Origin: an uncultured Lentimicrobiaceae bacterium
GTDB lineage: Bacteria; Bacteroidota; Bacteroidia; Bacteroidales; WCHB1-69
Length of the DNA: 64,000 bases
Direction: 5' to 3'
Assembly (NCBI GenBank): GCA_964610025.1
Contig: CAZSTX010000002.1
Location: forward strand, 2,752 to 66,751
Shown one piece after another: positions 54,768-64,000 of the stretch. The position numbers and the translations under genes were made by a program. Position 1 is the first letter of the stretch; every line of letters starts with the position of its first letter. The notes under the pieces are model-generated. The model made no database searches. It was not told the DNA's origin and was given only the letters and a program-made list of their open reading frames with translations.

Positions 54768-55766
54768 ATGGTTATAATCCCTTTTCAAAAACCGGATAAA
54801 ATAATAATGTTGGAAGCAAATGACTATTTTGGAGTCTTTGAATTTCGACCTTTAGAACCCGGCTACGGAGTTACAATAGGAAATGCATTAAGAAGAGTAT
54901 TGGTATCTTCCCTTGAAGGATTCGCAATTACCTCTATTAAAATAGAAGGAGTATTGCATGAATTTTCAACTATCCCTGGAGTTTTAGAAGATGTTACAGA
55001 TATTATTTTAAATATTAAACAAATTCGATTAAAAAGTAAAATTGAAGATCAAACAAGCGAAAAAGTTCGTTTTACTATTATAGGACAAAACGAATTCAAA
55101 GCAGGCGATATCAATAGTTTTTTAAGCGGATTTCAAGTCTTAAACGAAGATTTACATATCTGTACAATGGAACCAAATGTGAAGTTGGAAATAGAATTAA
55201 CAATTGATAAAGGACGTGGTTATGTACCAGTAGAAGACAACAGACAATTACATAATGAAATTGGAGTTATAGCATTAGATTCTATTCATACTCCACTTAA
55301 AAATGTAATGTACAGAGTAGAAAATTATCGCGTTGAACAAAAAACTGATTTTGAAAAATTGATTTTTGAAATTACTACCGATGGGTCAGTACATCCAAAA
55401 GAAGCCCTTAAAAAAGCAGCTAAAGTTTTGATACATCATTTTATTCTGTTTTCAGAAGACAAAATTACAACAAATATTGACGAAATATCGTTAAGTGAAG
55501 AGTTTGATGAAACGTCATTGCATATTCGACAAATATTGAAACAGAAATTAATAGATATGGAACTTACTGTTAGAGCATTAAATTGCTTGAGAGCAGCCGA
55601 TATAGAAACCATAGGAGATTTAGTTGTCGTTCATAAATCCGAATTGTTAAAAATTAGAAATTTCGGAAGAAAATCATTAGCTGAATTAGAAGAATTTGTT
55701 AAATCAAGAGGCTTAGAATTTGGAATGAATGTGGCAAAATATAAATTAGATTTAGAAAAAGATTAA
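54768..55766 (+). CDS. rpoA: DNA-directed RNA polymerase subunit alpha
   Basis: [11 protein letters not shown]-type motif ([11 protein letters not shown]), C-terminal domain with [10 protein letters not shown]. Confidence 0.98.
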
Positions 55767-55781
55767 TATTATAAAAGAGAT

Positions 55782-56429
55782 ATGAGACACGGGAAAAAAA
55801 TAAATTCATTAAGCAGAAAAAGTGCTCACCGTAAAGCTATGTTAGCTAATATGACAGTATCTTTGATTATGCACAAAAGGATAAATACCACAGTAGCTAA
55901 AGCAAAAGCACTTAAAAAATATGTAGAACCATTGCTTACAAAATCAAAAACCGATTCCACTCATTCAAGACGTGTTGTGTTTAGTTATCTACAAGATAAA
56001 ACAGCAATCAATGAATTGTTTAGAGAAATTTCACAAAAAATAGCTGATAGACCAGGTGGATACACACGTATTTTACGTACAGGATTTCGTGCAGGAGATG
56101 CTGCCGAAATGTGTATAATTGAATTGGTAGATTATAATGAAAATTATACTCAAAGTAAAAGCGATAAAAAAGCTAAAACTAAAACAACCCGTAGAAGTAG
56201 AAGTAAAAAAACAACAGAAAAAGAAATACTTGAAGCTACTACTCCTTCTACACCAGCAAGTGAAGATACAATAACAGAAAATGAAAACGTAGCAACAGAA
56301 AAAGTTGTAGCAGAAAAAGTTGTAGCAGAAGAGGTTGTAATAGAAGAGGCTGTAAAAGAAAAAGTTGTGGAAGAAGAGGGTGTAACTGAAGATACCCCAA
56401 AAATAGAAACGTCTACTGAAAAAGAATAA
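55782..56429 (+). CDS. rplQ: 50S ribosomal protein L17 with a ~95-aa acidic repetitive C-terminal extension
   Basis: [22 protein letters not shown]-terminus and the L17 core to about residue 120. This is followed by a Lys-rich segment and then a Glu/Val-rich pentapeptide repeat tail. Confidence 0.96.
56283..56387 (+). repeat. Seven tandem 15-bp (pentapeptide) repeats inside the rplQ 3' extension
   Basis: GAAAAAGTTGTAGCA occurs twice perfectly (56298-56327), flanked by diverged copies. They encode [35 protein letters not shown]. Confidence 0.85.
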
Positions 56430-56453
56430 TAAAATTTATAATAATATAAAGAT

Positions 56454-56497
56454 AAAGGTGTTGTTTTTACATAAAATAATACCTTTTTTTATTTTTT
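56454..56497 (+). terminator. Putative rho-independent terminator ending the ribosomal superoperon
   Basis: Stem AAAGGTGTT/AATACCTTT (one G-U pair) with a 15-nt loop, followed by TTTTATTTTTT. The loop is long, so confidence is moderate. Confidence 0.5.
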
Positions 56498-56604
56498 AAA
56501 GAAGTCTTGCGTTAAAAATTACCACAATTATTCCGTCTGAAATAATAAACAGAAAATTGTTAGAAAAAACGGAAATAAATCTTTTAAATATAAAAACTTT
56601 TTTC

Positions 56605-56612
56605 TAATTTTG
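56605..56612 (+). promoter_or_regulatory. Putative -7 box (TAATTTTG) for prs
   Basis: TAATTTTG, 26 nt upstream of ATG 56639. Confidence 0.45.
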
Positions 56613-56638
56613 GAAAATATTAAATTTAAACAACAATA

Positions 56639-57604
56639 ATGTCTTCAAAAGTTAAAATAGCCTCAGGAAGAGCAAGTAAATCACTTGCCGAAAAGATAGC
56701 AATAGCTTATAATCAGAAATTAGTAGAAGTAGAAGTTCTTGTATTTAGCGATGGAGAATTTCAACCTTCTTATTGTGAAAATTTACGAGGGTCCGATGTT
56801 TTTATCATTCAATCGACATTCCCACCAGCCGATAATCTTTTAGAACTACTATATATGATAGATGCAGCGAAACGAGCATCAGCTCATCGTATTATAGCCG
56901 TTATACCTTATTTTGGAGTGGCAAGGCAAGATAGAAAAGATAAACCAAGAGTGGCTATTGGCGCTAAATTAGTAGCTAATTTATTAACAGTTGCAGGAGC
57001 CGACCGTGTTATTACGATGGATTTACATGCCGACCAAATACAAGGTTTTTTTGATGTTCCTGTTGACAATGTATATGCTTCTCGTTTATTTCTACCATAT
57101 TTAAGACAAAGAAATTTTGACAATCTATGTTTGGCTTCTCCCGATACGGGAGGAACACGCAGAGCAGCTTCTTATGCTAAATACTTAGGTGCTGATCTTG
57201 CTATTGGATTTAAACAACGATCAAAAGCTAATGTAGTTGGCTCTTTACAAATAATAGGAGATGTAACCAATAAAAATGTAGTAATAGTTGATGACATTAT
57301 TGATACTGCCGGGACTATATGTAAAGCTGCAAATGCTATTAAATCTTTAGGAGCTAAAAGTGTTCGTGCTATGTGTGTGCATCCAGTTTTATCTGGAAAT
57401 GCTTATGAAAACATTGAGGCATCGTCTTTAGAAGAATTAATAACTACAGATACTATTCCTTTAAAAAGAACATTAAATAAAATTACGGTATTATCTACAG
57501 ATAAATTATTTGCAAAAGTTATTAATGGAGTGGTAACAAGTAGCTCTATCAGTTCATTATTTGATTATAATCATTTTATAGAATTTGATGATATTAAATT
57601 TTAA
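56639..57604 (+). CDS. prs: Ribose-phosphate pyrophosphokinase
   Basis: PRPP-binding loop VVIVDDIIDTAGT, DLHADQIQGFF motif, 321 aa. Confidence 0.95.
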   Translation: MSSKVKIASGRASKSLAEKIAIAYNQKLVEVEVLVFSDGEFQPSYCENLRGSDVFIIQSTFPPADNLLELLYMIDAAKRASAHRIIAVIPYFGVARQDRKDKPRVAIGAKLVANLLTVAGADRVITMDLHADQIQGFFDVPVDNVYASRLFLPYLRQRNFDNLCLASPDTGGTRRAASYAKYLGADLAIGFKQRSKANVVGSLQIIGDVTNKNVVIVDDIIDTAGTICKAANAIKSLGAKSVRAMCVHPVLSGNAYENIEASSLEELITTDTIPLKRTLNKITVLSTDKLFAKVINGVVTSSSISSLFDYNHFIEFDDIKF

Positions 57605-57617
57605 ATAAACTCTTTTT

Positions 57618-59690
57618 TTATTGTTTAATAAATTTCTTAGTAATATTACCTGTATTGGTATTAATATTGATAAAATACATTCCTTTTGCTAAATCACTAA
57701 CATCTATTGTTATAATAGGTGTCTTGATATAATAATGCTTTAATTGTTTTCCCATATAATCGTACAAGCTTATACGATTTACTTTATAGTGTTCTAAGTC
57801 GATTATTAATTTATCTGTAGCAGGATTAGGATATAATATTATTTGATTTTCAAAATCTTCCTTATCGTATACTCCTATTATTCCCGAAGTATAGTTTAAT
57901 TCCCATCCATCAAAAGTATTTTTTTCGTCTGTTTTAAAAGAAAAGAACAGAAAATTGGAGTTAAATGTGAAAGTAGTATCTCCTATATTGCCCGAAAGGC
58001 TTACTAATAAATCTTTTTGACTAGAACTATAATCGTAAATATACAATATATCTTTTTCCTTTTCAGTTTCAAATTTTGTAAAATTCAATGTAATAGAAGT
58101 AACTCCATTTATTTTTAGTTGTTTTTTACATTCTGTAAAGTTATTATATCTTTTATTTCCACTTCCATCTTCTATTTTTCCCGATTTAGCGGTTACTATT
58201 TGTAGTGGGCTACAGTAAATAGGAATAGTTGTAATATAATATGCATAAAATCCATCTTTTGTTGAGGCGTTTTGAGAAGTAAAGCGTACTGTTATTTCTG
58301 TTCCTATTACAACTAATTTCATATCTGCCGAATCGTTAGTAATAATAATGTCTTCTCCATTTTTATCGTTAGAAGTAATGAATAAAGTGTCGTTTTCAGC
58401 GATTTGATATTGGATGTAAAAGTCTATTTTTTGAATACTATCTAAATCAGGGATAATTTTCCATGTATAATCCATATTATTGCTATAGTTATAAATTCTC
58501 CCACTTCCGTCTTCAAACGACCCAGCCTCTGCTGTAAGTATTGTTTCGCCAACAATTGTTTTATTGTCAGGGTAGACATATAAAGATGTGTCAGGATAAG
58601 CATTAATAATAATTTCTTGAGCTAAATTAAAATTATTTCCTCCCGGACTTAAAGTATTGGTGTAGAAATATCCATCCATATATCCATCCCATCCAAAATT
58701 GAAATGATAATAATAATTAGAGTCAATATGTTGATAACCATCGCAAATAAATCCATGTCCATTTGTGTCGGGGACACTCCATCCTGCATAATAAAGCGGG
58801 ATTTTTTGATTTAAATGTGATACTATAATACTATCCCAATTTTGGGTAGTTGTATCTCTGAAAACATATTCAGTTGTTGGTGAATATCTAAAATAAGTGC
58901 GTAAGGCATAAGCCGCTTTGTGATTATACATTCCCGAAGATTTTGGTCCATAAACCATATCAACGGCGACACCACAATGGTGTATTAATAAAGATGCTGC
59001 AGCATTAATAGTATTGGGGATATCGGTCATTGCTGCATAATCGTATAATGCTGCACTAAAGTCGGCTTCTATTGTATTATAAACATCGTGATTATAAGAA
59101 TATGCTCCTATGCCTGTTGTTGGGAAACGAAAATAATACATTAATTGCGCCATAGCTGTTGCTACACAGCCTGTTACAGCACGACCATTGGTGCCCATTT
59201 CATCTTTTGGACAAAAATAATTATAATTAGCTCCTTGTCCCCATTTAGAGGTTAACAAAGGAGAAATAAACTCAATATCATTTTCAAAATCTTTTTGATT
59301 TTTCAATAATTTATTCCACAATTGAATGTTTTTATTTGATATTTTTTCAGGAGATGATTTTAATAATTGGATTTGATTTTTATAATGTTCTAACCACATT
59401 TCTACTGGTGGAATTATATTGTCTGTTTCAAAAATATTTTTTTCTGAAAAAGCCAATATGGGTACGGAGCGTTTATCGGCTGCTATTATTACAAAACCTT
59501 TTGTTGCATTGAATACGTAAAAGAGTGTATCTCTTTTATCTTTAGCAATATAAGAGCATGTTTTTGTTGATTTTTGTTGTTTTGAAAAAAAATTTTGTGC
59601 TACTTTTTGAGCTTCATTGTAGGTAATTTGTTGTGAATTTATCGTATGTATTACCAACAAAATAGAAAATAGAATGAATAACCTTTTCAT
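57618..59690 (-). CDS. C10 (streptopain/SpeB-like) family cysteine peptidase with Spi-type propeptide, two CUB-like modules and T9SS C-terminal sorting domain
   Basis: Signal peptide and propeptide-like ITYNEAQKVAQNFF. Catalytic Cys block LLTSKWGQGANYNYFCP...TGCVATAMAQLMYYF and His block GHGFICDGY. Two repeats of G(S/K)(F/I)EDGSG...Y.N. T9SS tail ILYPNPATDKLIIDL...GMYFININTNTGNITKKFIKQ. Confidence 0.85.
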   Translation of the reverse strand: MKRLFILFSILLVIHTINSQQITYNEAQKVAQNFFSKQQKSTKTCSYIAKDKRDTLFYVFNATKGFVIIAADKRSVPILAFSEKNIFETDNIIPPVEMWLEHYKNQIQLLKSSPEKISNKNIQLWNKLLKNQKDFENDIEFISPLLTSKWGQGANYNYFCPKDEMGTNGRAVTGCVATAMAQLMYYFRFPTTGIGAYSYNHDVYNTIEADFSAALYDYAAMTDIPNTINAAASLLIHHCGVAVDMVYGPKSSGMYNHKAAYALRTYFRYSPTTEYVFRDTTTQNWDSIIVSHLNQKIPLYYAGWSVPDTNGHGFICDGYQHIDSNYYYHFNFGWDGYMDGYFYTNTLSPGGNNFNLAQEIIINAYPDTSLYVYPDNKTIVGETILTAEAGSFEDGSGRIYNYSNNMDYTWKIIPDLDSIQKIDFYIQYQIAENDTLFITSNDKNGEDIIITNDSADMKLVVIGTEITVRFTSQNASTKDGFYAYYITTIPIYCSPLQIVTAKSGKIEDGSGNKRYNNFTECKKQLKINGVTSITLNFTKFETEKEKDILYIYDYSSSQKDLLVSLSGNIGDTTFTFNSNFLFFSFKTDEKNTFDGWELNYTSGIIGVYDKEDFENQIILYPNPATDKLIIDLEHYKVNRISLYDYMGKQLKHYYIKTPIITIDVSDLAKGMYFININTNTGNITKKFIKQ

Positions 59691-59720
59691 TATTATAATA
59701 ATTTAACTTTTTATGAAATG

Positions 59721-59728
59721 CAAAAATA
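59721..59728 (-). promoter_or_regulatory. Putative -7 box (TATTTTTG) for the C10 peptidase gene
   Basis: Minus-strand TATTTTTG, 31 nt upstream of ATG 59690. Confidence 0.4.
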
Positions 59729-59774
59729 ATAAATAAATCAAAAGAAACTATTGATTATTTATAAGTAACGTATT

Positions 59775-60635
59775 TTATTGAGTAATTTTACGATAAATTG
59801 CTTCTATTCTTGTTGCTATTTCTGAGTTTTTTGCATATTCAATAATGCTTTTACAATTTACCATTGCATTAACTATTTGTATATCAAATGGCAACTCTCC
59901 AACTACTGGAATGTTTTGTTCTTTACACCAATTTGATATATTTTGAGTCATTGCAAGATTTAAATCATATTTATTAATAATAACCCATATTTTTAATCGA
60001 AATTTCGATGTAAATTCTACTGCTCGTTGCAAATCGTATAATCCTGAAAGTGTAGGTTCGGTAACTATCACAACATGGTCTACTCCCGTTATACTTGAAA
60101 TAATAGGGCAGCCTATTCCAGGAGAACCATCAATTATTATTGTTTGCAATCGATTTTCTTTTAAAATTTCTTTTGCTTTTGTTCTTATAATATTCACTAA
60201 TTTTCCTGAATTTTCTTCACCTGGTGCTAATTTACCATATACCATTTTGCCATTACGAAAACTCCCTGTAAACATTCTACTTTTATCATTATCAATCATT
60301 TCTATAGCTCCTATAGGACATACTCGCGAACATAATTTACACCCATCGCAAGAGATTTCAGAAATGACAACTTTATTGTTTATTGATTCAATGGCATCGA
60401 ATCGGCAATAGTTAATACATAATTTGCAATTGTTACAAATTGTATCATCTATCTTTGCAATTTGTTTGCCAATAAAAACTTCTTCTTCTTCAATGATTGG
60501 ATTAAACAAAATGTCTAAGTTAGCTGCATCGACATCACAGTCGGCTAAAACTACTTTTTCGGATAAGGTCGCAAAAGCTGCACTGATGCTACTCTTCCCT
60601 GTTCCTCCTTTTCCACTAATGATTGCTATTTCCAT
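59775..60635 (-). CDS. MinD/ParA-superfamily P-loop ATPase with inserted 2x[4Fe-4S] ferredoxin domain (copy 2)
   Basis: Deviant Walker A SGKGGTGKSS. Two Cys clusters CNNCKLCINYC and CDGCKLCSRVC. Conserved GSPGIGCP. Its start overlaps copy 1 by 20 nt. Confidence 0.85.
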   Translation of the reverse strand: MEIAIISGKGGTGKSSISAAFATLSEKVVLADCDVDAANLDILFNPIIEEEEVFIGKQIAKIDDTICNNCKLCINYCRFDAIESINNKVVISEISCDGCKLCSRVCPIGAIEMIDNDKSRMFTGSFRNGKMVYGKLAPGEENSGKLVNIIRTKAKEILKENRLQTIIIDGSPGIGCPIISSITGVDHVVIVTEPTLSGLYDLQRAVEFTSKFRLKIWVIINKYDLNLAMTQNISNWCKEQNIPVVGELPFDIQIVNAMVNCKSIIEYAKNSEIATRIEAIYRKITQ

Positions 60636-61500
60636 ATTGCTTATTTATTGAGTGAAACATTTTGATAAATTTAGTTTGTAATTCAGGATAGTAATGATTA
60701 ATTAGTTCCCCTTTTGAATAATGAAAAGCGATTGTTTTGTCGAATGGAATTTCCATTAATAATTGAATGTTATTTTGTTTGAGATATTGATAAATTGTGC
60801 TGTCTCCTATTCCAGCACGATTAATAATTACTCCATAATCTTTATTCATTGTTTTTAATGTCGCTATTGATTGCTTTAAATCACTCATACCAAAGGGTGT
60901 AGACTCGGCAACCAATATAACATAATCTGCTGCTGCCACAGTTTGAATAAATGGACAAGAAGTGCCTGGGGGAGAATCGAAGATGACGATTTTTTTGTCA
61001 AAAGCTTCTTTTATTCCTGCATTAATAACTGCAACGGGTGCAAGGGTTCCTACTTTAATGCGTGATTCTATAATAGAAGCTTGTTTTGATATTGCATATG
61101 TTGTAACATTTCCTATAACGATATCTTTTTCTGTAATTGCATTATAGGCACATGCATATAAGCAAGCTCCACAATCATGGCACAATTCTTCAACTACTTT
61201 TATAAATTTTAAAGATGGCTGTATTACAATTGCATTATAATTGCAATATTCGTGACATTTTCCACAAAAAGTGCATTTATTTTCATCTATGACAGGTATT
61301 TTTTGTTGAATTTCAGTTGATTTTTCTTTTGTCCCTTTAAAAAAAATCATTGTATTGGGTTCTTCTGCATCACAATCTACTAACACTAATTGTTGATTTA
61401 GCTGTAGTAAAGCATAAAATAGATTGGTAGCAACTAATGTTTTTCCTGTTCCTCCTTTTCCACTTGCTATAGCTATTTTAATTTTTTTCAATTCAACCAT
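60616..61500 (-). CDS. MinD/ParA-superfamily P-loop ATPase with inserted 2x[4Fe-4S] ferredoxin domain (copy 1)
   Basis: Deviant Walker A SGKGGTGKT. Cys clusters CTFCGKCHEYC and CHDCGACLYAC. Conserved SPPGTSCP. Confidence 0.85.
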   Translation of the reverse strand: MVELKKIKIAIASGKGGTGKTLVATNLFYALLQLNQQLVLVDCDAEEPNTMIFFKGTKEKSTEIQQKIPVIDENKCTFCGKCHEYCNYNAIVIQPSLKFIKVVEELCHDCGACLYACAYNAITEKDIVIGNVTTYAISKQASIIESRIKVGTLAPVAVINAGIKEAFDKKIVIFDSPPGTSCPFIQTVAAADYVILVAESTPFGMSDLKQSIATLKTMNKDYGVIINRAGIGDSTIYQYLKQNNIQLLMEIPFDKTIAFHYSKGELINHYYPELQTKFIKMFHSINKQYGNSNH

Positions 61501-61507
61501 ATTTATT

Positions 61508-62374
61508 TTATTTTTTGTTATATACTATAAAACTACCTTTTTGCACTTTGAGTTTTTCGGCTATGACATCGCATTTTGTCATCAATAAGAAAAAAAGTCT
61601 TGCATCATTTTCATCCATCAATCCTTCGTAGTTACCTTGCCCTTTCGATATGATTAAATCGGCACGAGCATATATTTCAAGAAATTCTTTACTGCACTGA
61701 CTTAATATAGTTGATGGTCCATTAAATCCATTAGATACAATTTTGGCTGTTTTTTCTAATCCAACTTCTTTGGCTTCTTTTAATGTAACATCGTTTAGAA
61801 TAGGAGCATTGCGAACTGCAAAAATTACTTTTTGAGGCATAACTGTTTCTATAAAAAGTTTATCAAAAACGATTTCTCCTGCATTATCGCCTAAATATAA
61901 TATTTTTTTTGCTTTTTTTATTTTTTGATAAAGCAGCTGTGAGTTATCTATTGCAAATGATGTTTTTAACACTTTATTGATAGTCTCTTGAATGTCAAAA
62001 TTATTACTTGCGGCATAATCCATAATATTGCCTGCAATAGCTAATCGTAATGCCATATCAAAAGGATTTTTAGCACTCAACACTTGTGGTTGATATTTTT
62101 CATATAAGTGCAATCCTATTGCATTGCTATTCTTTTTTTCTTCGTCAAAAGGGTCGAATGTGCCTACTAATTCATAGAATTTATAATGCAGTTTTTTTTG
62201 GATATCCAATCTATTTTGATGTTTTTCTATAACTGTATCAAAATAGGCTAAAAAAATATGTTGTGTTTCAGATGAAACGTTAAATTTTTTGAATAGTCGC
62301 CGATATGTTTTTAAAAAACATGCACTACATCTCTTGTCTATTATATTGTTAACAACATAATTGTTTTTATTCAT
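61508..62374 (-). CDS. DUF89 / ARMT1-like (damage-control phosphatase family) protein
   Basis: 288 aa. N-terminal C..C (CSACFLKTYRR), central GDNAGEIVFD and C-terminal ISKGQGNYE blocks are characteristic of DUF89 metal-dependent phosphatases. TAATG start/stop overlap with the upstream NifX-like gene. Confidence 0.75.
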   Translation of the reverse strand: MNKNNYVVNNIIDKRCSACFLKTYRRLFKKFNVSSETQHIFLAYFDTVIEKHQNRLDIQKKLHYKFYELVGTFDPFDEEKKNSNAIGLHLYEKYQPQVLSAKNPFDMALRLAIAGNIMDYAASNNFDIQETINKVLKTSFAIDNSQLLYQKIKKAKKILYLGDNAGEIVFDKLFIETVMPQKVIFAVRNAPILNDVTLKEAKEVGLEKTAKIVSNGFNGPSTILSQCSKEFLEIYARADLIISKGQGNYEGLMDENDARLFFLLMTKCDVIAEKLKVQKGSFIVYNKK

Positions 62375-62712
62375 TAATGATTACAATAGTTGGCGTTAAG
62401 CATTAATTTATTGTCTAAAAAATCGCGGACAAGTTCTTCCGAAGTTTTTATCGGAGCACCTACAAAAACATTAATTTTTTGTTGATTGAAAAGGGTAATT
62501 GCTTTTTGTCCCATTCCACCAGCTATAACATCGGTTGTCCCAAATTCAGCTACCCATTTAGGATATAATCCGGGTTCGTGCTGTGGGGGAATTATTTCTT
62601 TTATTTGAGTAATATTATTGTTATCTACATGTATAATTTCAAATGATTGACAATGCCCAAAATGAGCACATAATTTTCCATTTTCTAATGGTATTGCTAT
62701 TATTTTTTTCAT
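62374..62712 (-). CDS. NifX/NifB-C-terminal-like (dinitrogenase FeMo-cofactor-binding fold) protein, type B
   Basis: MKKIIAIPLENGKLCAHFGHCQSF...PPQHEPGLYPKWVAE...VIAGGMGQKAITLF...NYCNH matches the small NifX-like proteins of anaerobes. Confidence 0.8.
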   Translation of the reverse strand: MKKIIAIPLENGKLCAHFGHCQSFEIIHVDNNNITQIKEIIPPQHEPGLYPKWVAEFGTTDVIAGGMGQKAITLFNQQKINVFVGAPIKTSEELVRDFLDNKLMLNANYCNH

Positions 62713-62751
62713 ACTATAAAAATTACTAATTTAAATTATAAGATTTTTTAA

Positions 62752-62781
62752 AACAACGAGAGAATTAACTCTCTCGTTGTT
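62752..62781 (-). promoter_or_regulatory. Perfect 12-bp intercistronic stem-loop immediately after the DUF5320 stop codon
   Basis: AACAACGAGAGA (62752-62763) pairs with TCTCTCGTTGTT (62770-62781) around a 6-nt loop. On the coding (minus) strand only TT then A6 follow, so it is not a canonical terminator. Confidence 0.6.
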
Positions 62782-62787
62782 ATGATT

Positions 62788-63021
62788 TTATCTTCTTCCG
62801 AAGCCAGGTCTTCCCATTCCAAACCCTCTACCACATCTATTGCTTCTAAAGCCGAACTCTCTTCTTGCTCCAAATCCTCTTCCCATAAAGTTTCTTGCTT
62901 CACTTCTTTCATTTTCAGCAAATTGTGTAGTGTTGTTTAAGTTTGAGGTAGAACAATCTCCCATCTTTCTACCTGTCATAGGACCTTGTCCAGATGGACC
63001 TGTTTGATCAAATCGTGGCAT
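62788..63021 (-). CDS. DUF5320-family small Gly/Arg/Phe-rich protein
   Basis: MPRFDQTGPSGQGPMTGRKMGDC N-terminus (family hallmark MPR.D.TGP.G.GP.TGR..G.C) and an RGFG-repeat tail (GRGFGARREFGFRSNRCGRGFGMGRPGFGRR). Confidence 0.75.
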   Translation of the reverse strand: MPRFDQTGPSGQGPMTGRKMGDCSTSNLNNTTQFAENERSEARNFMGRGFGARREFGFRSNRCGRGFGMGRPGFGRR

Positions 63022-63026
63022 ATGAT

Positions 63027-63033
63027 ACCTCCT
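63027..63033 (-). promoter_or_regulatory. Canonical Shine-Dalgarno sequence (AGGAGGT) for the DUF5320 gene
   Basis: Minus strand reads AAAAAAGGAGGTATCATATG. That is a 7-nt perfect complement to the 16S anti-SD with a 5-nt spacer to the ATG. Confidence 0.6.
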
Positions 63034-63057
63034 TTTTTAAATTATTATAAACTTTTT

Positions 63058-63378
63058 TTATTTTTTTTCTAATTTTTCTATAATATCTTTTATTTTTTGT
63101 TCAGGTTCCTTAAGTATAATCATTTGTATTTTAAGACTGTCAAATAAAGATTTGATTTTCATTCCAAATTCACCCGAAATAACTTTACTTACATTACGTG
63201 AAGCTACTAATTGCACTGATGCAGGACCTGCTCCATCTTCAACGTTCTTATTTGGATTTGGGACAATTTCTATTGCTTTGCTTTCTAAATCGTAAAAAAC
63301 AAAATAAGCACAACGACCAAAACGAGGGTCGATGTTTGATTCTAATGAATTTCCTGTTGATGTTATTGCTACTTTCAT
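63058..63378 (-). CDS. NifX/MTH1175-like (dinitrogenase FeMo-cofactor-binding fold) protein, type A
   Basis: MKVAITSTGNSLESNIDPRFGRCAYFVFYD...DGAGPASVQLVASRNVSKVISGEFG matches the MTH1175-like subgroup of the NifX/NafY/orange-protein fold. Confidence 0.8.
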   Translation of the reverse strand: MKVAITSTGNSLESNIDPRFGRCAYFVFYDLESKAIEIVPNPNKNVEDGAGPASVQLVASRNVSKVISGEFGMKIKSLFDSLKIQMIILKEPEQKIKDIIEKLEKK

Positions 63379-63384
63379 ATTTTT

Positions 63385-63879
63385 TTATTTTTTATGTAAT
63401 TTTCCGTGTTTATGTCCTCTGCCTATTTTTTCTTGATATTGATTAAATTCTTTTTCTATATCTACTTGCTGACAGGCTATTACTTCTTTGTTTTTACACA
63501 AAGGACAATATATGTTTTCTGATTCTTCTTCAATACTATTGAAATAACAATTGCATTTTTTGCAATAAAACCAATTGCTATCAAAATAAACCTTTCCTCC
63601 ATCTATTGTTATTGGTCTTCCTTCGACAAAAGCTTGTGCAATTTTTTGCAATGCAGAAGCATATATTCTTGTGAAAGTTGGTCTTGACACGCACATCACA
63701 ATAGATGCTTGATGATGATTTAGCAGGTTGTAATCGCTTAAACGTATAGCTTCGTATTCTTCATATAGCATATTAATGGGTGTAGCCTCCTTGTTTTCTA
63801 AATCTTTCCCATAAGGTTTAAATCCTTTAACTTTCGGTATATCAGATATTTTTCTTAATATTCTAACTCTTGTTGTCAT
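63385..63879 (-). CDS. DUF134 (UPF0251) putative DNA-binding protein with added C-terminal CxxC...CxxC zinc ribbon and basic His/Lys tail
   Basis: FKPYG...LYEEYEAIRLSDYNLLNHHQASIVMCVSRPTFTRIYASALQKIAQAFVEG is the DUF134 sigma-70 region-4-like HTH core. CKKC...CPLC follows. The start is set at ATG 63879 because ATG 63903 lies 2 nt after the -7 box. Confidence 0.75.
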   Translation of the reverse strand: MTTRVRILRKISDIPKVKGFKPYGKDLENKEATPINMLYEEYEAIRLSDYNLLNHHQASIVMCVSRPTFTRIYASALQKIAQAFVEGRPITIDGGKVYFDSNWFYCKKCNCYFNSIEEESENIYCPLCKNKEVIACQQVDIEKEFNQYQEKIGRGHKHGKLHKK

Positions 63880-63905
63880 AAATTTTAATGAACTATTGTT
63901 CATTG

Positions 63906-63913
63906 CAAAAGTA
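63906..63913 (-). promoter_or_regulatory. Putative -7 box (TACTTTTG) for the seven-gene orp-like cluster
   Basis: Minus-strand TACTTTTG, 26 nt upstream of ATG 63879. Confidence 0.5.
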
Positions 63914-64000
63914 ATAAACTATTGTTTAATATGCAAGCGTTAAATAAAAAAAATAAAAAAAAATTATTTTACTATTTCGGCAACCGTAAAAGCGCTTCCT

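Follow-up and report, generated by a model that had tools for sequence, protein, structure and literature searches.

In this study, we undertook a computational analysis of a seven-gene cluster on the minus strand of a 64-kb stretch of DNA (hereafter the window) from an uncultured bacterium of the Lentimicrobiaceae, Bacteroidota (GenBank assembly GCA_964610025.1, contig CAZSTX010000002.1). The cluster encodes a pair of MinD-like ATPases with inserted ferredoxin domains, two proteins of the NifX fold, a DUF134 regulator, a short DUF5320 protein and a DUF89 protein, and is most likely one configuration of an ancient, anaerobe-wide module, of the type represented by the orp genes of Desulfovibrio vulgaris, that handles iron-sulfur (Fe-S) material. 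Its membership of the orp-type systems seems to us highly probable. As to its function, we lean, though not strongly, toward a composite reading in which the cluster would be an ATP-gated module for the storage and delivery of Fe-S (iron-sulfide) material.

The cluster and its relation to the orp system

The preliminary description of this DNA had listed seven co-directional minus-strand genes between 63903 and 59775, separated by 6, 36, 75, -1, 7 and -20 nt, and had assigned each to a family from the letters alone. The open reading frame (ORF) calls match those spacings exactly (63385-63903, 63058-63378, 62788-63021, 62374-62712, 61508-62374, 60616-61500 and 59775-60635), and Pfam profile hidden Markov models (HMMs) back every family: DUF134 for gene 1 (76 bits), Nitro_FeMo-Co for genes 2 and 4 (57.9 and 53.2 bits), DUF5320 for gene 3 (41.8 bits), ARMT1-like/DUF89 for gene 5 (207.7 bits), and CbiA/ParA together with Fer4 for genes 6 and 7, each of which has the P-loop GKGGTGK[TS] and two CxxCxxCxxxC motifs. 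The further statement that nif genes are absent is supported for nifH and nifB, by motif only: the window ORFs that were screened contain no GKGGxGK[ST] P-loop beyond genes 6 and 7 and no CX3CX2C radical-SAM motif.

The ORP complex of D. vulgaris comprises the MinD-like proteins Orp3 and Orp4 with two [4Fe-4S] motifs each, the NifX-fold proteins Orp5 and Orp8, and Orp9, also called MrpORP (PMC6345978, PMC8359166). MrpORP is an Mrp-type Fe-S carrier that transfers clusters to, and matures, Orp3-Orp4-Orp8, and in Orp8 homologues the cluster is S2MoS2CuS2MoS2 (PMC6345978); regulation is by OrpR, a sigma-54 activator that senses redox through a [4Fe-4S] cluster (PMC6345978, PMC8359166). The MinD-ferredoxin ATPase pair and the NifX-fold proteins of the window match this core, in agreement with the orp-like reading first given to the cluster. 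The D. vulgaris Orp sequences were not among the 80 related loci that we compared (see below), and the comparison with orp was made through loci bearing MrpORP. Mrp-NifX fusions scored above the NCBIfam MrpORP equivalog cut-off in six of these loci (501-557 bits vs. 450), each of which also holds a MinD-ferredoxin pair with 36-40% identity between its first member and gene 6. Three of the six contain DUF5320, and among these three one also has DUF89, one DUF134 and one CGGC.

A further link to MrpORP is provided by gene 4 (62374-62712), whose NifX fold is of the TM1816/MrpORP Di-Nase type (PDB matches 1t3v and 1o13) and which aligns with positions 265-365 of the NCBIfam MrpORP profile at 117.6 bits, against the cut-off of 450. 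Its His/Cys site has the form CxHFGHC...PPxHxPG...CxH, and the motifs LCAHFGHCQ, IIPPQHEPGLYP and CNH are the three described for the MrpORP Di-Nase domain, which the MrpORP authors proposed to be ligands and contacts of its [3Fe-4S] cluster (PMC6345978). When gene 4 was aligned with 58 relatives (59 sequences), H17 and C110 were present in 59/59, H20 in 54/59, H45 in 53/59, C21 in 50/59 and H112 in 49/59.

Conservation of the neighbourhood in bacteria and archaea

An exhaustive profile search with gene 6 returned 4009 clusters at 50% identity (E <=0.001). For comparison of gene neighbourhoods we used 80 loci, the best tblastn matches to gene 6 with one genome per species, which were annotated with HMMs built in this analysis and are cited below by L number. 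Re-scoring of 140 ORFs with Pfam was in agreement with that annotation (49 DUF5320, 32 DUF134, 29 NUBPL/Mrp-type ParA, 20 ARMT1-like, 6 CGGC and 3 Zip). The loci are from Bacteroidota, Clostridia, Planctomycetota, Dehalococcoidia, Desulfobacterota, Zixibacteria, Acidobacteriota, Lentisphaerota and Campylobacterota among the bacteria, and from Bathyarchaeia, Thorarchaeota, Altiarchaeota and methanogens among the archaea. A second MinD-ferredoxin gene is adjacent to the first in 70 of the 80 loci, and a NifX-like gene is present in 73; DUF5320 occurs in 36, DUF134 in 32, Mrp/NBP35 in 29, DUF89 in 20, CGGC in six and ZIP in three. Co-occurrence of the families extends well beyond this genome, and gene order is conserved across more than 15 phyla.

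All seven families were found together in four Bacteroidota loci and one Planctomycetota locus. Cultured carriers include Mangrovibacterium marinum DSM 28823, Geofilum sp. OHC36d9 and Maribellus sp. CM-23 (among L014, L026 and L036), in which the cluster is a variant form, and Plebeiibacterium marinum D04 (L028), also cultured, has the full set plus an Mrp-like gene. The preliminary description had viewed DUF5320, DUF89 and DUF134 as a Bacteroidota extension of the orp system, a view that has to be abandoned as all three recur outside that phylum (20, nine and 16, respectively, of 53 loci, archaea and MrpORP loci included). The frequencies of the accessory families are far above chance, because a 16-kb neighbourhood amounts to only ~0.5% of a 3-Mb genome, a rough estimate that assumes no more than a few copies of each accessory family in a genome.

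Other recurrent neighbours are a radical-SAM protein and an FmdB-type zinc ribbon (16 loci each), NifU_N scaffolds (15), a metallo-beta-lactamase-fold protein (14), sigma-54 activators (13) and FeoAB (three), and ZIP transporters are found in several loci. In one locus, a Lentimicrobiaceae metagenome-assembled genome (MAG; L054), genes for a ferritin-like protein and a 1-Cys peroxiredoxin are inserted in the cluster, between DUF5320 and the next NifX gene. In a Smithella MAG (L045:8550-9830) a fusion of a NifU/IscU scaffold to an Mrp/ApbC ATPase directly follows the second MinD-ferredoxin gene.

The paired MinD-ferredoxin ATPases

Genes 6 (60616-61500) and 7 (59775-60635), which overlap by 20 nt and are 29% identical, encode ATPases of the Orp3/Orp4 kind, that is, of the MinD/NifH class with an inserted 2x[4Fe-4S] ferredoxin domain. 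The insertion lies directly after switch I (DCDAEEPN), and both paralogues have a near-invariant Cys seven residues past the switch II Asp (D175...C182), which presumably is the register of Asp125 and Cys132 in NifH. In every one of the 62 complete pairs, which represent more than 15 phyla of bacteria and archaea, a gene-6-like ATPase comes first and a gene-7-like one second (median score margins 102 and 165 bits). Agreement of all 62 loci by such large margins indicates that the duplication is older than the divergence of the phyla and that the order of the two genes is fixed. In addition, tandem fusions of both ATPases, ~600 aa in length, occur among many database proteins (P0139-P0160 and others, as well as a 595-aa ORF in L054). 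The fixed order and the tandem fusions together argue for an obligate heterodimer, and genes 6 and 7 likely form one.

The AlphaFold2 (AF2) model of gene 6 is confident (predicted local distance difference test, pLDDT, 85; predicted template modelling score, pTM, 0.82), and in Foldseek it matched MinD, FleN, Soj, BchL (template modelling score of the query, TMq, 0.60), NifH and HypB about equally (TMq 0.5-0.6). Both ATPases fail the MinD equivalog models, gene 6 scoring 41.8 and gene 7 scoring 53.4 bits against TIGR01968 (cut-off 212.9), and 54.1 and 66.4 bits, respectively, against TIGR01969 (cut-off 201.75). Both proteins end in amphipathic helices with a hydrophobic moment (muH) of ~0.65, a measure for which the benchmark was weak.

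NifX-fold proteins, DUF5320 and the likeness to IssA

Gene 2 (63058-63378) has a NifX fold of the MTH1175/orange protein/IssA type and is 28% identical to gene 4. Its PDB matches are 1rdu, 1eo1 (E 7.1e-9) and the Desulfovibrio gigas orange protein 2wfb (E 2.4e-8), with E values from 4e-10 to 2.4e-8, and its similarity to TM1290 and MTH1175 is no lower than that to the orange protein. Residues D17, R19, F20, G21, R22, N41 and G49-A-G51 are conserved in this type and no Cys is (n = 76 relatives).

Gene 3 (62788-63021) encodes a short DUF5320 protein with the N-terminal sequence MPxFDQTGPxGQGPMTGRKMGxC and a cationic tail rich in Gly, Arg and Phe. Canonical DUF5320 proteins consist of an N-terminal MPxGDGTGPxGxGPMTGRxxGxC, a Gly/Arg/aromatic stretch and a coiled coil; gene 3 retains the first two parts, matching positions 1-56 of the 99 in PF17253 (41.8 bits vs. 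a gathering threshold of 27), and is without the C-terminal coiled coil. The last two parts are those found in the tails of tailed NifX-like proteins, which are present in 20 of the 80 loci, mostly upstream of the ATPases, and typically have (GMGR)n repeats with a coiled coil behind them. The Pfam gathering threshold for DUF5320 is exceeded by six of these tails (29.7-43.9 bits), and in hhalign comparisons canonical stand-alone DUF5320 matched the NifX tails with 98.9% probability (E 1.8e-17) and the Bacteroidota gene-3 type with 98.5% probability (E 1.9e-15). These profile comparisons make DUF5320 a homologue of the Gly/Arg tails that tailed NifX-like proteins carry. A word-indexed search with gene 3 itself returned 16 relatives. 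As a stand-alone protein or as a tail the DUF5320 module is found in 47 of the 80 loci, 34 of 49 DUF5320 genes adjoin a NifX gene, and other fusions join DUF5320 to a NifX domain (L019) or to an NifU_N Fe-S scaffold domain (L054:4309-6324, in the Lentimicrobiaceae MAG mentioned above).

The pairing of these two kinds of protein recalls IssA of Pyrococcus furiosus, in which an MTH1175-type NifX fold is followed by a disordered, cationic, Gly/Arg/aromatic-rich tail holding a single Cys; IssA is a store in which iron and sulfur are present as thioferrate, and it can restore ferredoxin's [4Fe-4S] cluster (PMC5524996). Gene 3 has an isoelectric point (pI) of 11.7 and, over its last 40 residues, 25% Gly, six aromatic residues and one Cys, so that on its own it fits the operational definition of a tail in the IssA paper (pI >=9, fewer than five Cys, and at least 20% Gly in the last 40 residues). 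That definition expects the tail on the same polypeptide as the globular domain, and gene 2 is without one; a concatenation of genes 2 and 3 does fit (pI 9.8; three Cys). By analogy, we infer that genes 2 and 3 could be a split IssA-like unit.

One Cys-rich module, CxCPxCG-x5-H-x2-G-x-PC-x4-CPxC, with a weak zinc-ribbon match in Pfam, recurs in three settings among the loci. In 11 loci (L046:2496-2723 and ten others) it is preceded, in a 76-aa protein, by an N-terminal motif like that of DUF5320, it stands at the end of a tailed NifX-like protein (L053:509-1069), and it is part of long DUF134 C-termini (L004 and L007).

The DUF134 regulator, its promoter and its operators

Gene 1 encodes a DUF134/UPF0251 helix-turn-helix (HTH) protein of 164 aa (63385-63879) with a C-terminal CxxCxC...CPLC ribbon, in which C106, C109, C111, C125 and C128 are invariant in 46 homologues. 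DUF134 relatives also match Sigma70_r4 and Sigma70_r4_2 in Pfam. The AF2 model of gene 1 is of moderate confidence (pLDDT 66), and its HTH superposes locally at 0.6-0.9 Å on sigma-70 region 4 and on the DeoR DNA-binding domain, matches that were weak in Foldseek (E >=0.13).

Perfect palindromes of the form TGAnn-N4-nnTCA are concentrated upstream of DUF134 genes. We found 23 in the 9.4 kb upstream of these genes, in 21 of 36 loci, and 31 in the remaining 981 kb, a ~78-fold enrichment. Several of the 31 are upstream of the first NifX, DUF5320 or ATPase gene where the promoter is without a DUF134 gene, and in a Thorarchaeota MAG two of them precede the tailed NifX gene. The operator half-site changes with one residue of the predicted recognition helix in 21 of 21 loci: helices SRPT[FLY]-T-RIY go with TGAAC...GTTCA (10/10 loci), SR[PA]TF-A-RIY with TGAGA...TCTCA (9/9) and TF-G/Q-RI[VL] with TGAGC...GCTCA (2/2). 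This co-variation is the pattern expected if DUF134 binds the palindromes, which we consider probable on these sequence grounds, and it supports the proposal in the preliminary description that DUF134 regulates the cluster.

In the window, two inverted repeats of the TGAAC-N4-GTTCA type flank a Bacteroidota-type -7 box, TACTTTTG (63906-63913), which occupies the same position upstream of DUF134 in related loci. On the minus strand the promoter region reads cTTGca, TAAACAATAGTTTA, T, TACTTTTG, CAA, TGAACAATAGTTCA, 9 nt and ATG. The TTG at 63934-63936, read from the sequence, is a candidate -33-like element, and TTGCA is also present just upstream of operator 1 in L004, L010, L011 and L020. Operator 1 (TAAAC-AATA-GTTTA, 63915-63928) lies in the spacer between the -33 and -7 elements, differs from operator 2 by two mismatches and keeps its position in relatives, and operator 2 (TGAAC-AATA-GTTCA, 63889-63902) is a perfect palindrome that spans the expected transcription start and is the one occurrence of GAAC-N4-GTTC in the 64 kb. 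All of these features are on the minus strand. The order of -33 TTG, palindrome, -7 box and palindrome recurs upstream of DUF134 in many related loci, and it is solely this conservation of the whole layout that makes the -7 box credible. The single promoter box of the preliminary description is thus supported at 63906-63913 by its setting and not by its motif, as TAnnTTTG occurs in the window at chance frequency (114 matches vs. 118 expected). A scan for the sigma-70 consensus was equally uninformative (26 sites in comparison to 26.2 expected). A second TAnnTTTG match, TAATTTTG (61996-62003, minus strand), is inside the DUF89 gene, ~500 nt upstream of gene 6, and could be an internal promoter or a chance occurrence.

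The start of gene 1 is best placed at ATG 63879 rather than at ATG 63903, which we take to be spurious. The upstream ATG is only 2 nt past the -7 box and forms part of the conserved operator 2 palindrome, the DUF134 Pfam match begins at residue 10 of the longer reading, and gene callers on identical contigs begin at M9 (164 aa); together these findings point to 63879.

One operator occupies the -33/-7 spacer and the other lies over the expected start, which suggests repression, and DUF134 is likely an autorepressor and sensor of the operon. Most (Bacteroidales) DUF134 relatives have a second ribbon module, and the window protein is a short form without it. At the same position, five loci (L047, L049, L056, L067 and L075) have a Gly/Arg tail, and L072 has a NifX domain of the gene-4 type (L072:6909-7601). 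The add-ons differ by clade, being a NifX domain, a zinc ribbon with a Gly/Arg tail, or a Gly/Arg tail alone, and these C-terminal additions suggest that the regulator senses the ligand of its own system. Two loci from MAGs labelled Hyphomicrobiales (L018 and L033) have a Bacteroidota-type cluster, the TAnnTTTG promoter and a Bacteroidota operator, and for that reason their contigs have probably been mis-binned.

Directly after the DUF5320 stop codon is a perfect 12-bp hairpin (62752-62781, minus strand) with a fold of -20 kcal/mol (z = -6.2), which none of 200 shuffled sequences equalled. Hairpins of different sequence are at the same place in L010, where the changes are compensatory, and in L009, L011, L021, L022 and L035, with T tails following in L022 and L035. 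The hairpin is a candidate partial terminator or RNA-stability element. Because it follows DUF5320, a uniform single transcript is not assured, and the earlier proposal of one transcript for all seven genes is now doubtful; the operon may instead have two parts, with genes 1-3 on the 5' side expressed at a high level and genes 4-7 on the 3' side reached by read-through.

DUF89 and the surroundings of the cluster

Gene 5 (61508-62374) encodes a protein resembling metal-dependent phosphatases of DUF89 subfamily I. It is closest to PH1575 (2g8l, E 2.9e-46), a member of that subfamily (PMC9062747), and is below the cut-off of the NCBIfam equivalog NF040824 (197.5 vs. 440 bits). Across 20 cluster-linked homologues there is no variation in the active-site residues of DNxGE, ND and KGQGNxE or in three extra cysteines, C16, C19 and C268. 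Some loci have a CGGC-domain protein at the place of DUF89, with the second NifX-like gene on one side and the ATPases on the other, where it is found instead of DUF89 or together with it.

No compositional break was detected at the cluster, an Rfam scan of positions 55000-64000 returned neither a riboswitch nor a known RNA, and PADLOC gave zero anti-phage defence matches. Proteins identical to those of the cluster are found on Bacteroidales-type metagenome contigs, where the upstream genes are a Mur-ligase-family gene and ExbB/ExbD genes. No sigma-54 activator is present in the cluster or among those upstream genes, a statement about genes only as no search for a -24/-12 motif was made. Downstream, and outside the cluster proper, is a C10 (streptopain-like) cysteine peptidase gene (57618-59690, minus strand) with its own promoter box, TATTTTTG (59721-59728); its product combines a Spi inhibitor prodomain and a CUB domain with a C-terminal sorting domain for type IX secretion. 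Such a gene, with its own box, fits a Bacteroidota source. A C10 peptidase gene also adjoins the cluster in L001 and L010.

Proposed function and alternative explanations

In the storage and delivery reading, genes 2 and 3 would form a two-piece IssA-like unit that binds anionic iron-sulfide species or a cluster, the NifX fold providing the binding site and the cationic Gly/Arg/aromatic peptide the counter-charge, and gene 4 would carry a small Fe-S cluster. Binding and hydrolysis of ATP by the gene 6-7 heterodimer would drive or gate the transfer of this material to client proteins, and reduction by the four [4Fe-4S] clusters of the heterodimer is possibly involved too. Gene 1 would repress the operon at both operators and be released by the metal or cluster state sensed via its Cys ribbon, and the hairpin after gene 3 would allow the binding and regulatory genes to be expressed above the enzymatic genes. 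A more specific version, drawn from the IssA analogy, is that the NifX and DUF5320 proteins constitute a store of the thioferrate kind, which the MinD-ferredoxin heterodimer loads and unloads with ATP under a ligand-sensing DUF134 repressor. Taken with all these details we regard it as doubtful. If it were true, the orp neighbourhood would be a widespread, possibly ancient route of Fe-S storage and supply in anaerobic bacteria and archaea, drawing on sulfide directly and operating alongside SUF and ISC.

Several points weigh against the storage and delivery reading or the orp assignment on which it builds. The 80 loci are a sample of best matches and not a census, and the P-loop motif screen found no Mrp/NBP35 (Orp9) gene in the 64-kb window. 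Aligned directly, the gene-3 type and the NifX tails match weakly (77.9% probability over 19 low-complexity Gly/Arg columns), so that the link between them runs via canonical DUF5320, and the IssA tail has been likened to DUF5320 by its published description and not by sequence. Foldseek does not separate a MinD-like from a NifH/BchL-like identity for gene 6, the co-variation of helix and operator is partly confounded by shared ancestry, and DUF89 is an accessory without a place in the proposed mechanism.

The cluster might alternatively handle a heterometal, with the NifX-fold proteins binding a Mo/W-Cu-S thiometalate cluster that the ATPases assemble or deliver, as the preliminary description had suggested among its plausible roles. 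The match of gene 2 to the orange protein and the Mo-Cu cluster of Orp8 homologues (PMC6345978) favor this, and the Arg-rich, Cys-free pocket of gene 2 would suit any anionic metal-sulfide. Yet gene 2 is no closer to the orange protein than to TM1290 or MTH1175, and the genomic context is unsupportive: the recurrent neighbours are NifU_N, Mrp, FeoAB, ZIP and ferritin, and among the 25 neighbour families that recur most often in the 80 loci there are iron and Fe-S genes and no molybdate or tungstate transporter, pterin-cofactor or copper gene. We therefore consider heterometal handling quite unlikely. The same Mrp and NifU neighbours, which point to cluster trafficking, also count against an ATP-dependent, low-potential reductase in which the gene 6-7 dimer would pass electrons to a client in the manner of NifH, BchL or CfbC, the NifX-like proteins being clients or cofactor carriers. 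The deviant Walker A of both ATPases, the ferredoxin insertion directly after switch I, the Cys at switch II Asp +7 and the presence of BchL and NifH among the top structural matches speak for such an enzyme, but MinD, FleN and Soj score equally well and the loci conserve nothing comparable to NifDK or BchNB as a catalytic partner, leaving this explanation unlikely.

A role in positioning or division, in which MinD-like ATPases at the membrane or pole would organise division according to redox state, has been proposed for the D. vulgaris ORP complex and draws on published findings that loss of orp expression leads to morphological defects, that MrpORP is polar and that Orp3 and Orp4 have C-terminal amphipathic helices (PMC6345978). 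Genes 6 and 7 also end in such helices, within the limits of the weak benchmark. Nevertheless, neither comes near the MinD equivalog cut-offs, the 25 neighbour families that recur most often include none for division and no MinC/MinE family, many archaea have the system together with a different division machinery, and the published phenotype might be a secondary effect of an Fe-S defect; we regard this role as very unlikely. Finally, the possibility that the genes are unrelated neighbours brought together by chance, or a mobile or anti-phage defence island, is practically negligible given a gene order conserved in more than 15 phyla, domain fusions that link the families, the lack of any PADLOC match and the lack of a compositional break at the cluster.

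Our literature searches found DUF5320 in no functional paper, no link of DUF134, DUF5320 or DUF89 to orp, no work on bacterial ORP after 2021, and no functional paper combining two or more of DUF134, DUF5320, DUF89, COG1149, COG1433 and COG1342, the one match being a G-quadruplex survey. A lead for DUF134 in the literature on a Bacteroidetes iron stimulon was in fact to DUF1349, and other matches were mostly to DUF134x families. The kind of system, orp, is already known, and the window version is a variant without Mrp or sigma-54 control and with DUF134, DUF5320 and DUF89. What appear to be new are the connection of DUF5320 with the tails of NifX-like proteins and with a NifU scaffold, an operator predicted for DUF134, and a gene order conserved across phyla.

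Few uncharacterised families are as widespread in strict anaerobes as the MinD-ferredoxin ATPases (COG1149), MTH1175-type NifX-like proteins, DUF134, DUF5320 and prokaryotic DUF89. The cluster and its relatives join them into one neighbourhood and offer testable roles for DUF134, DUF5320 and DUF89, in the form of a defined DUF134 operator, a predicted heterodimeric ATPase, a predicted split IssA-like Fe-S pair and a stand-alone cluster domain of the MrpORP type. Should the storage and delivery reading prove true, it would describe the way in which many anaerobes, abundant environmental Bacteroidales among them, buffer iron and sulfide and distribute them; should it fail, the conserved synteny would still flag a major unexplained system.

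Comparison with known systems

The ATPases of the cluster share features with two groups of characterised proteins. Like NifH, BchL and CfbC, they have a SIMIBI fold expected to be dimeric, putative Fe-S clusters that would be coupled to the nucleotide switches, and a Cys at position +7 of switch II. In those proteins one cluster bridges the dimer, whereas in genes 6 and 7 the clusters are in an inserted ferredoxin domain, the predicted dimer is one of paralogues, and no catalytic partner is conserved in the loci. With the Mrp/NBP35/ApbC carriers and MrpORP they share the deviant Walker A of SIMIBI ATPases, but they have the inserted ferredoxin domain instead of the CxxC bridging motif of Mrp, and score 48 and 56 bits against the MrpORP cut-off of 450. 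Gene 5 resembles the DUF89 subfamily I phosphatases PH1575 and AF1104 in its fold and in all metal- and phosphate-site residues, and differs from them in its three extra invariant cysteines and its fixed position inside a metallocluster operon.

The likeness to IssA consists of an MTH1175-type NifX-fold domain (gene 2) and a cationic, Gly/Arg/aromatic-rich and presumably disordered segment with a lone Cys (gene 3), and Fe-S supply to apo-proteins would fit the genomic context of the window. Unlike in IssA, the globular domain and the cationic segment are the products of separate genes, and gene 3 has a conserved N-terminal motif not described for IssA. The likeness drawn here does not extend to thioferrate or nanoparticles. 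The MrpORP authors themselves referred to IssA only in stating that its tail is absent from Orp9 (PMC6345978).

The closest counterpart is the orp system of D. vulgaris (orp3-orp5, orp7-orp9 and OrpR). The window differs from it in having no MrpORP or any other Mrp gene, only the Di-Nase domain in the form of gene 4, and in having the additional DUF5320 and DUF89 genes; it has one co-directional operon in place of two divergent ones, with a Bacteroidota -33/-7 promoter and DUF134 in place of sigma-54, IHF and OrpR. Common to both are adjacent paralogous MinD-type ATPases with two [4Fe-4S] motifs each (Orp3 and Orp4), several single-domain NifX-fold proteins (IPR003731; Orp5, Orp7 and Orp8) of the orange-protein and His/Cys types, a restriction to anaerobes, and a dedicated regulator with Cys ligands. 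In this last respect the Fe-S sensor OrpR, although of an unrelated family, represents a parallel to the ligand sensing that we propose for DUF134.

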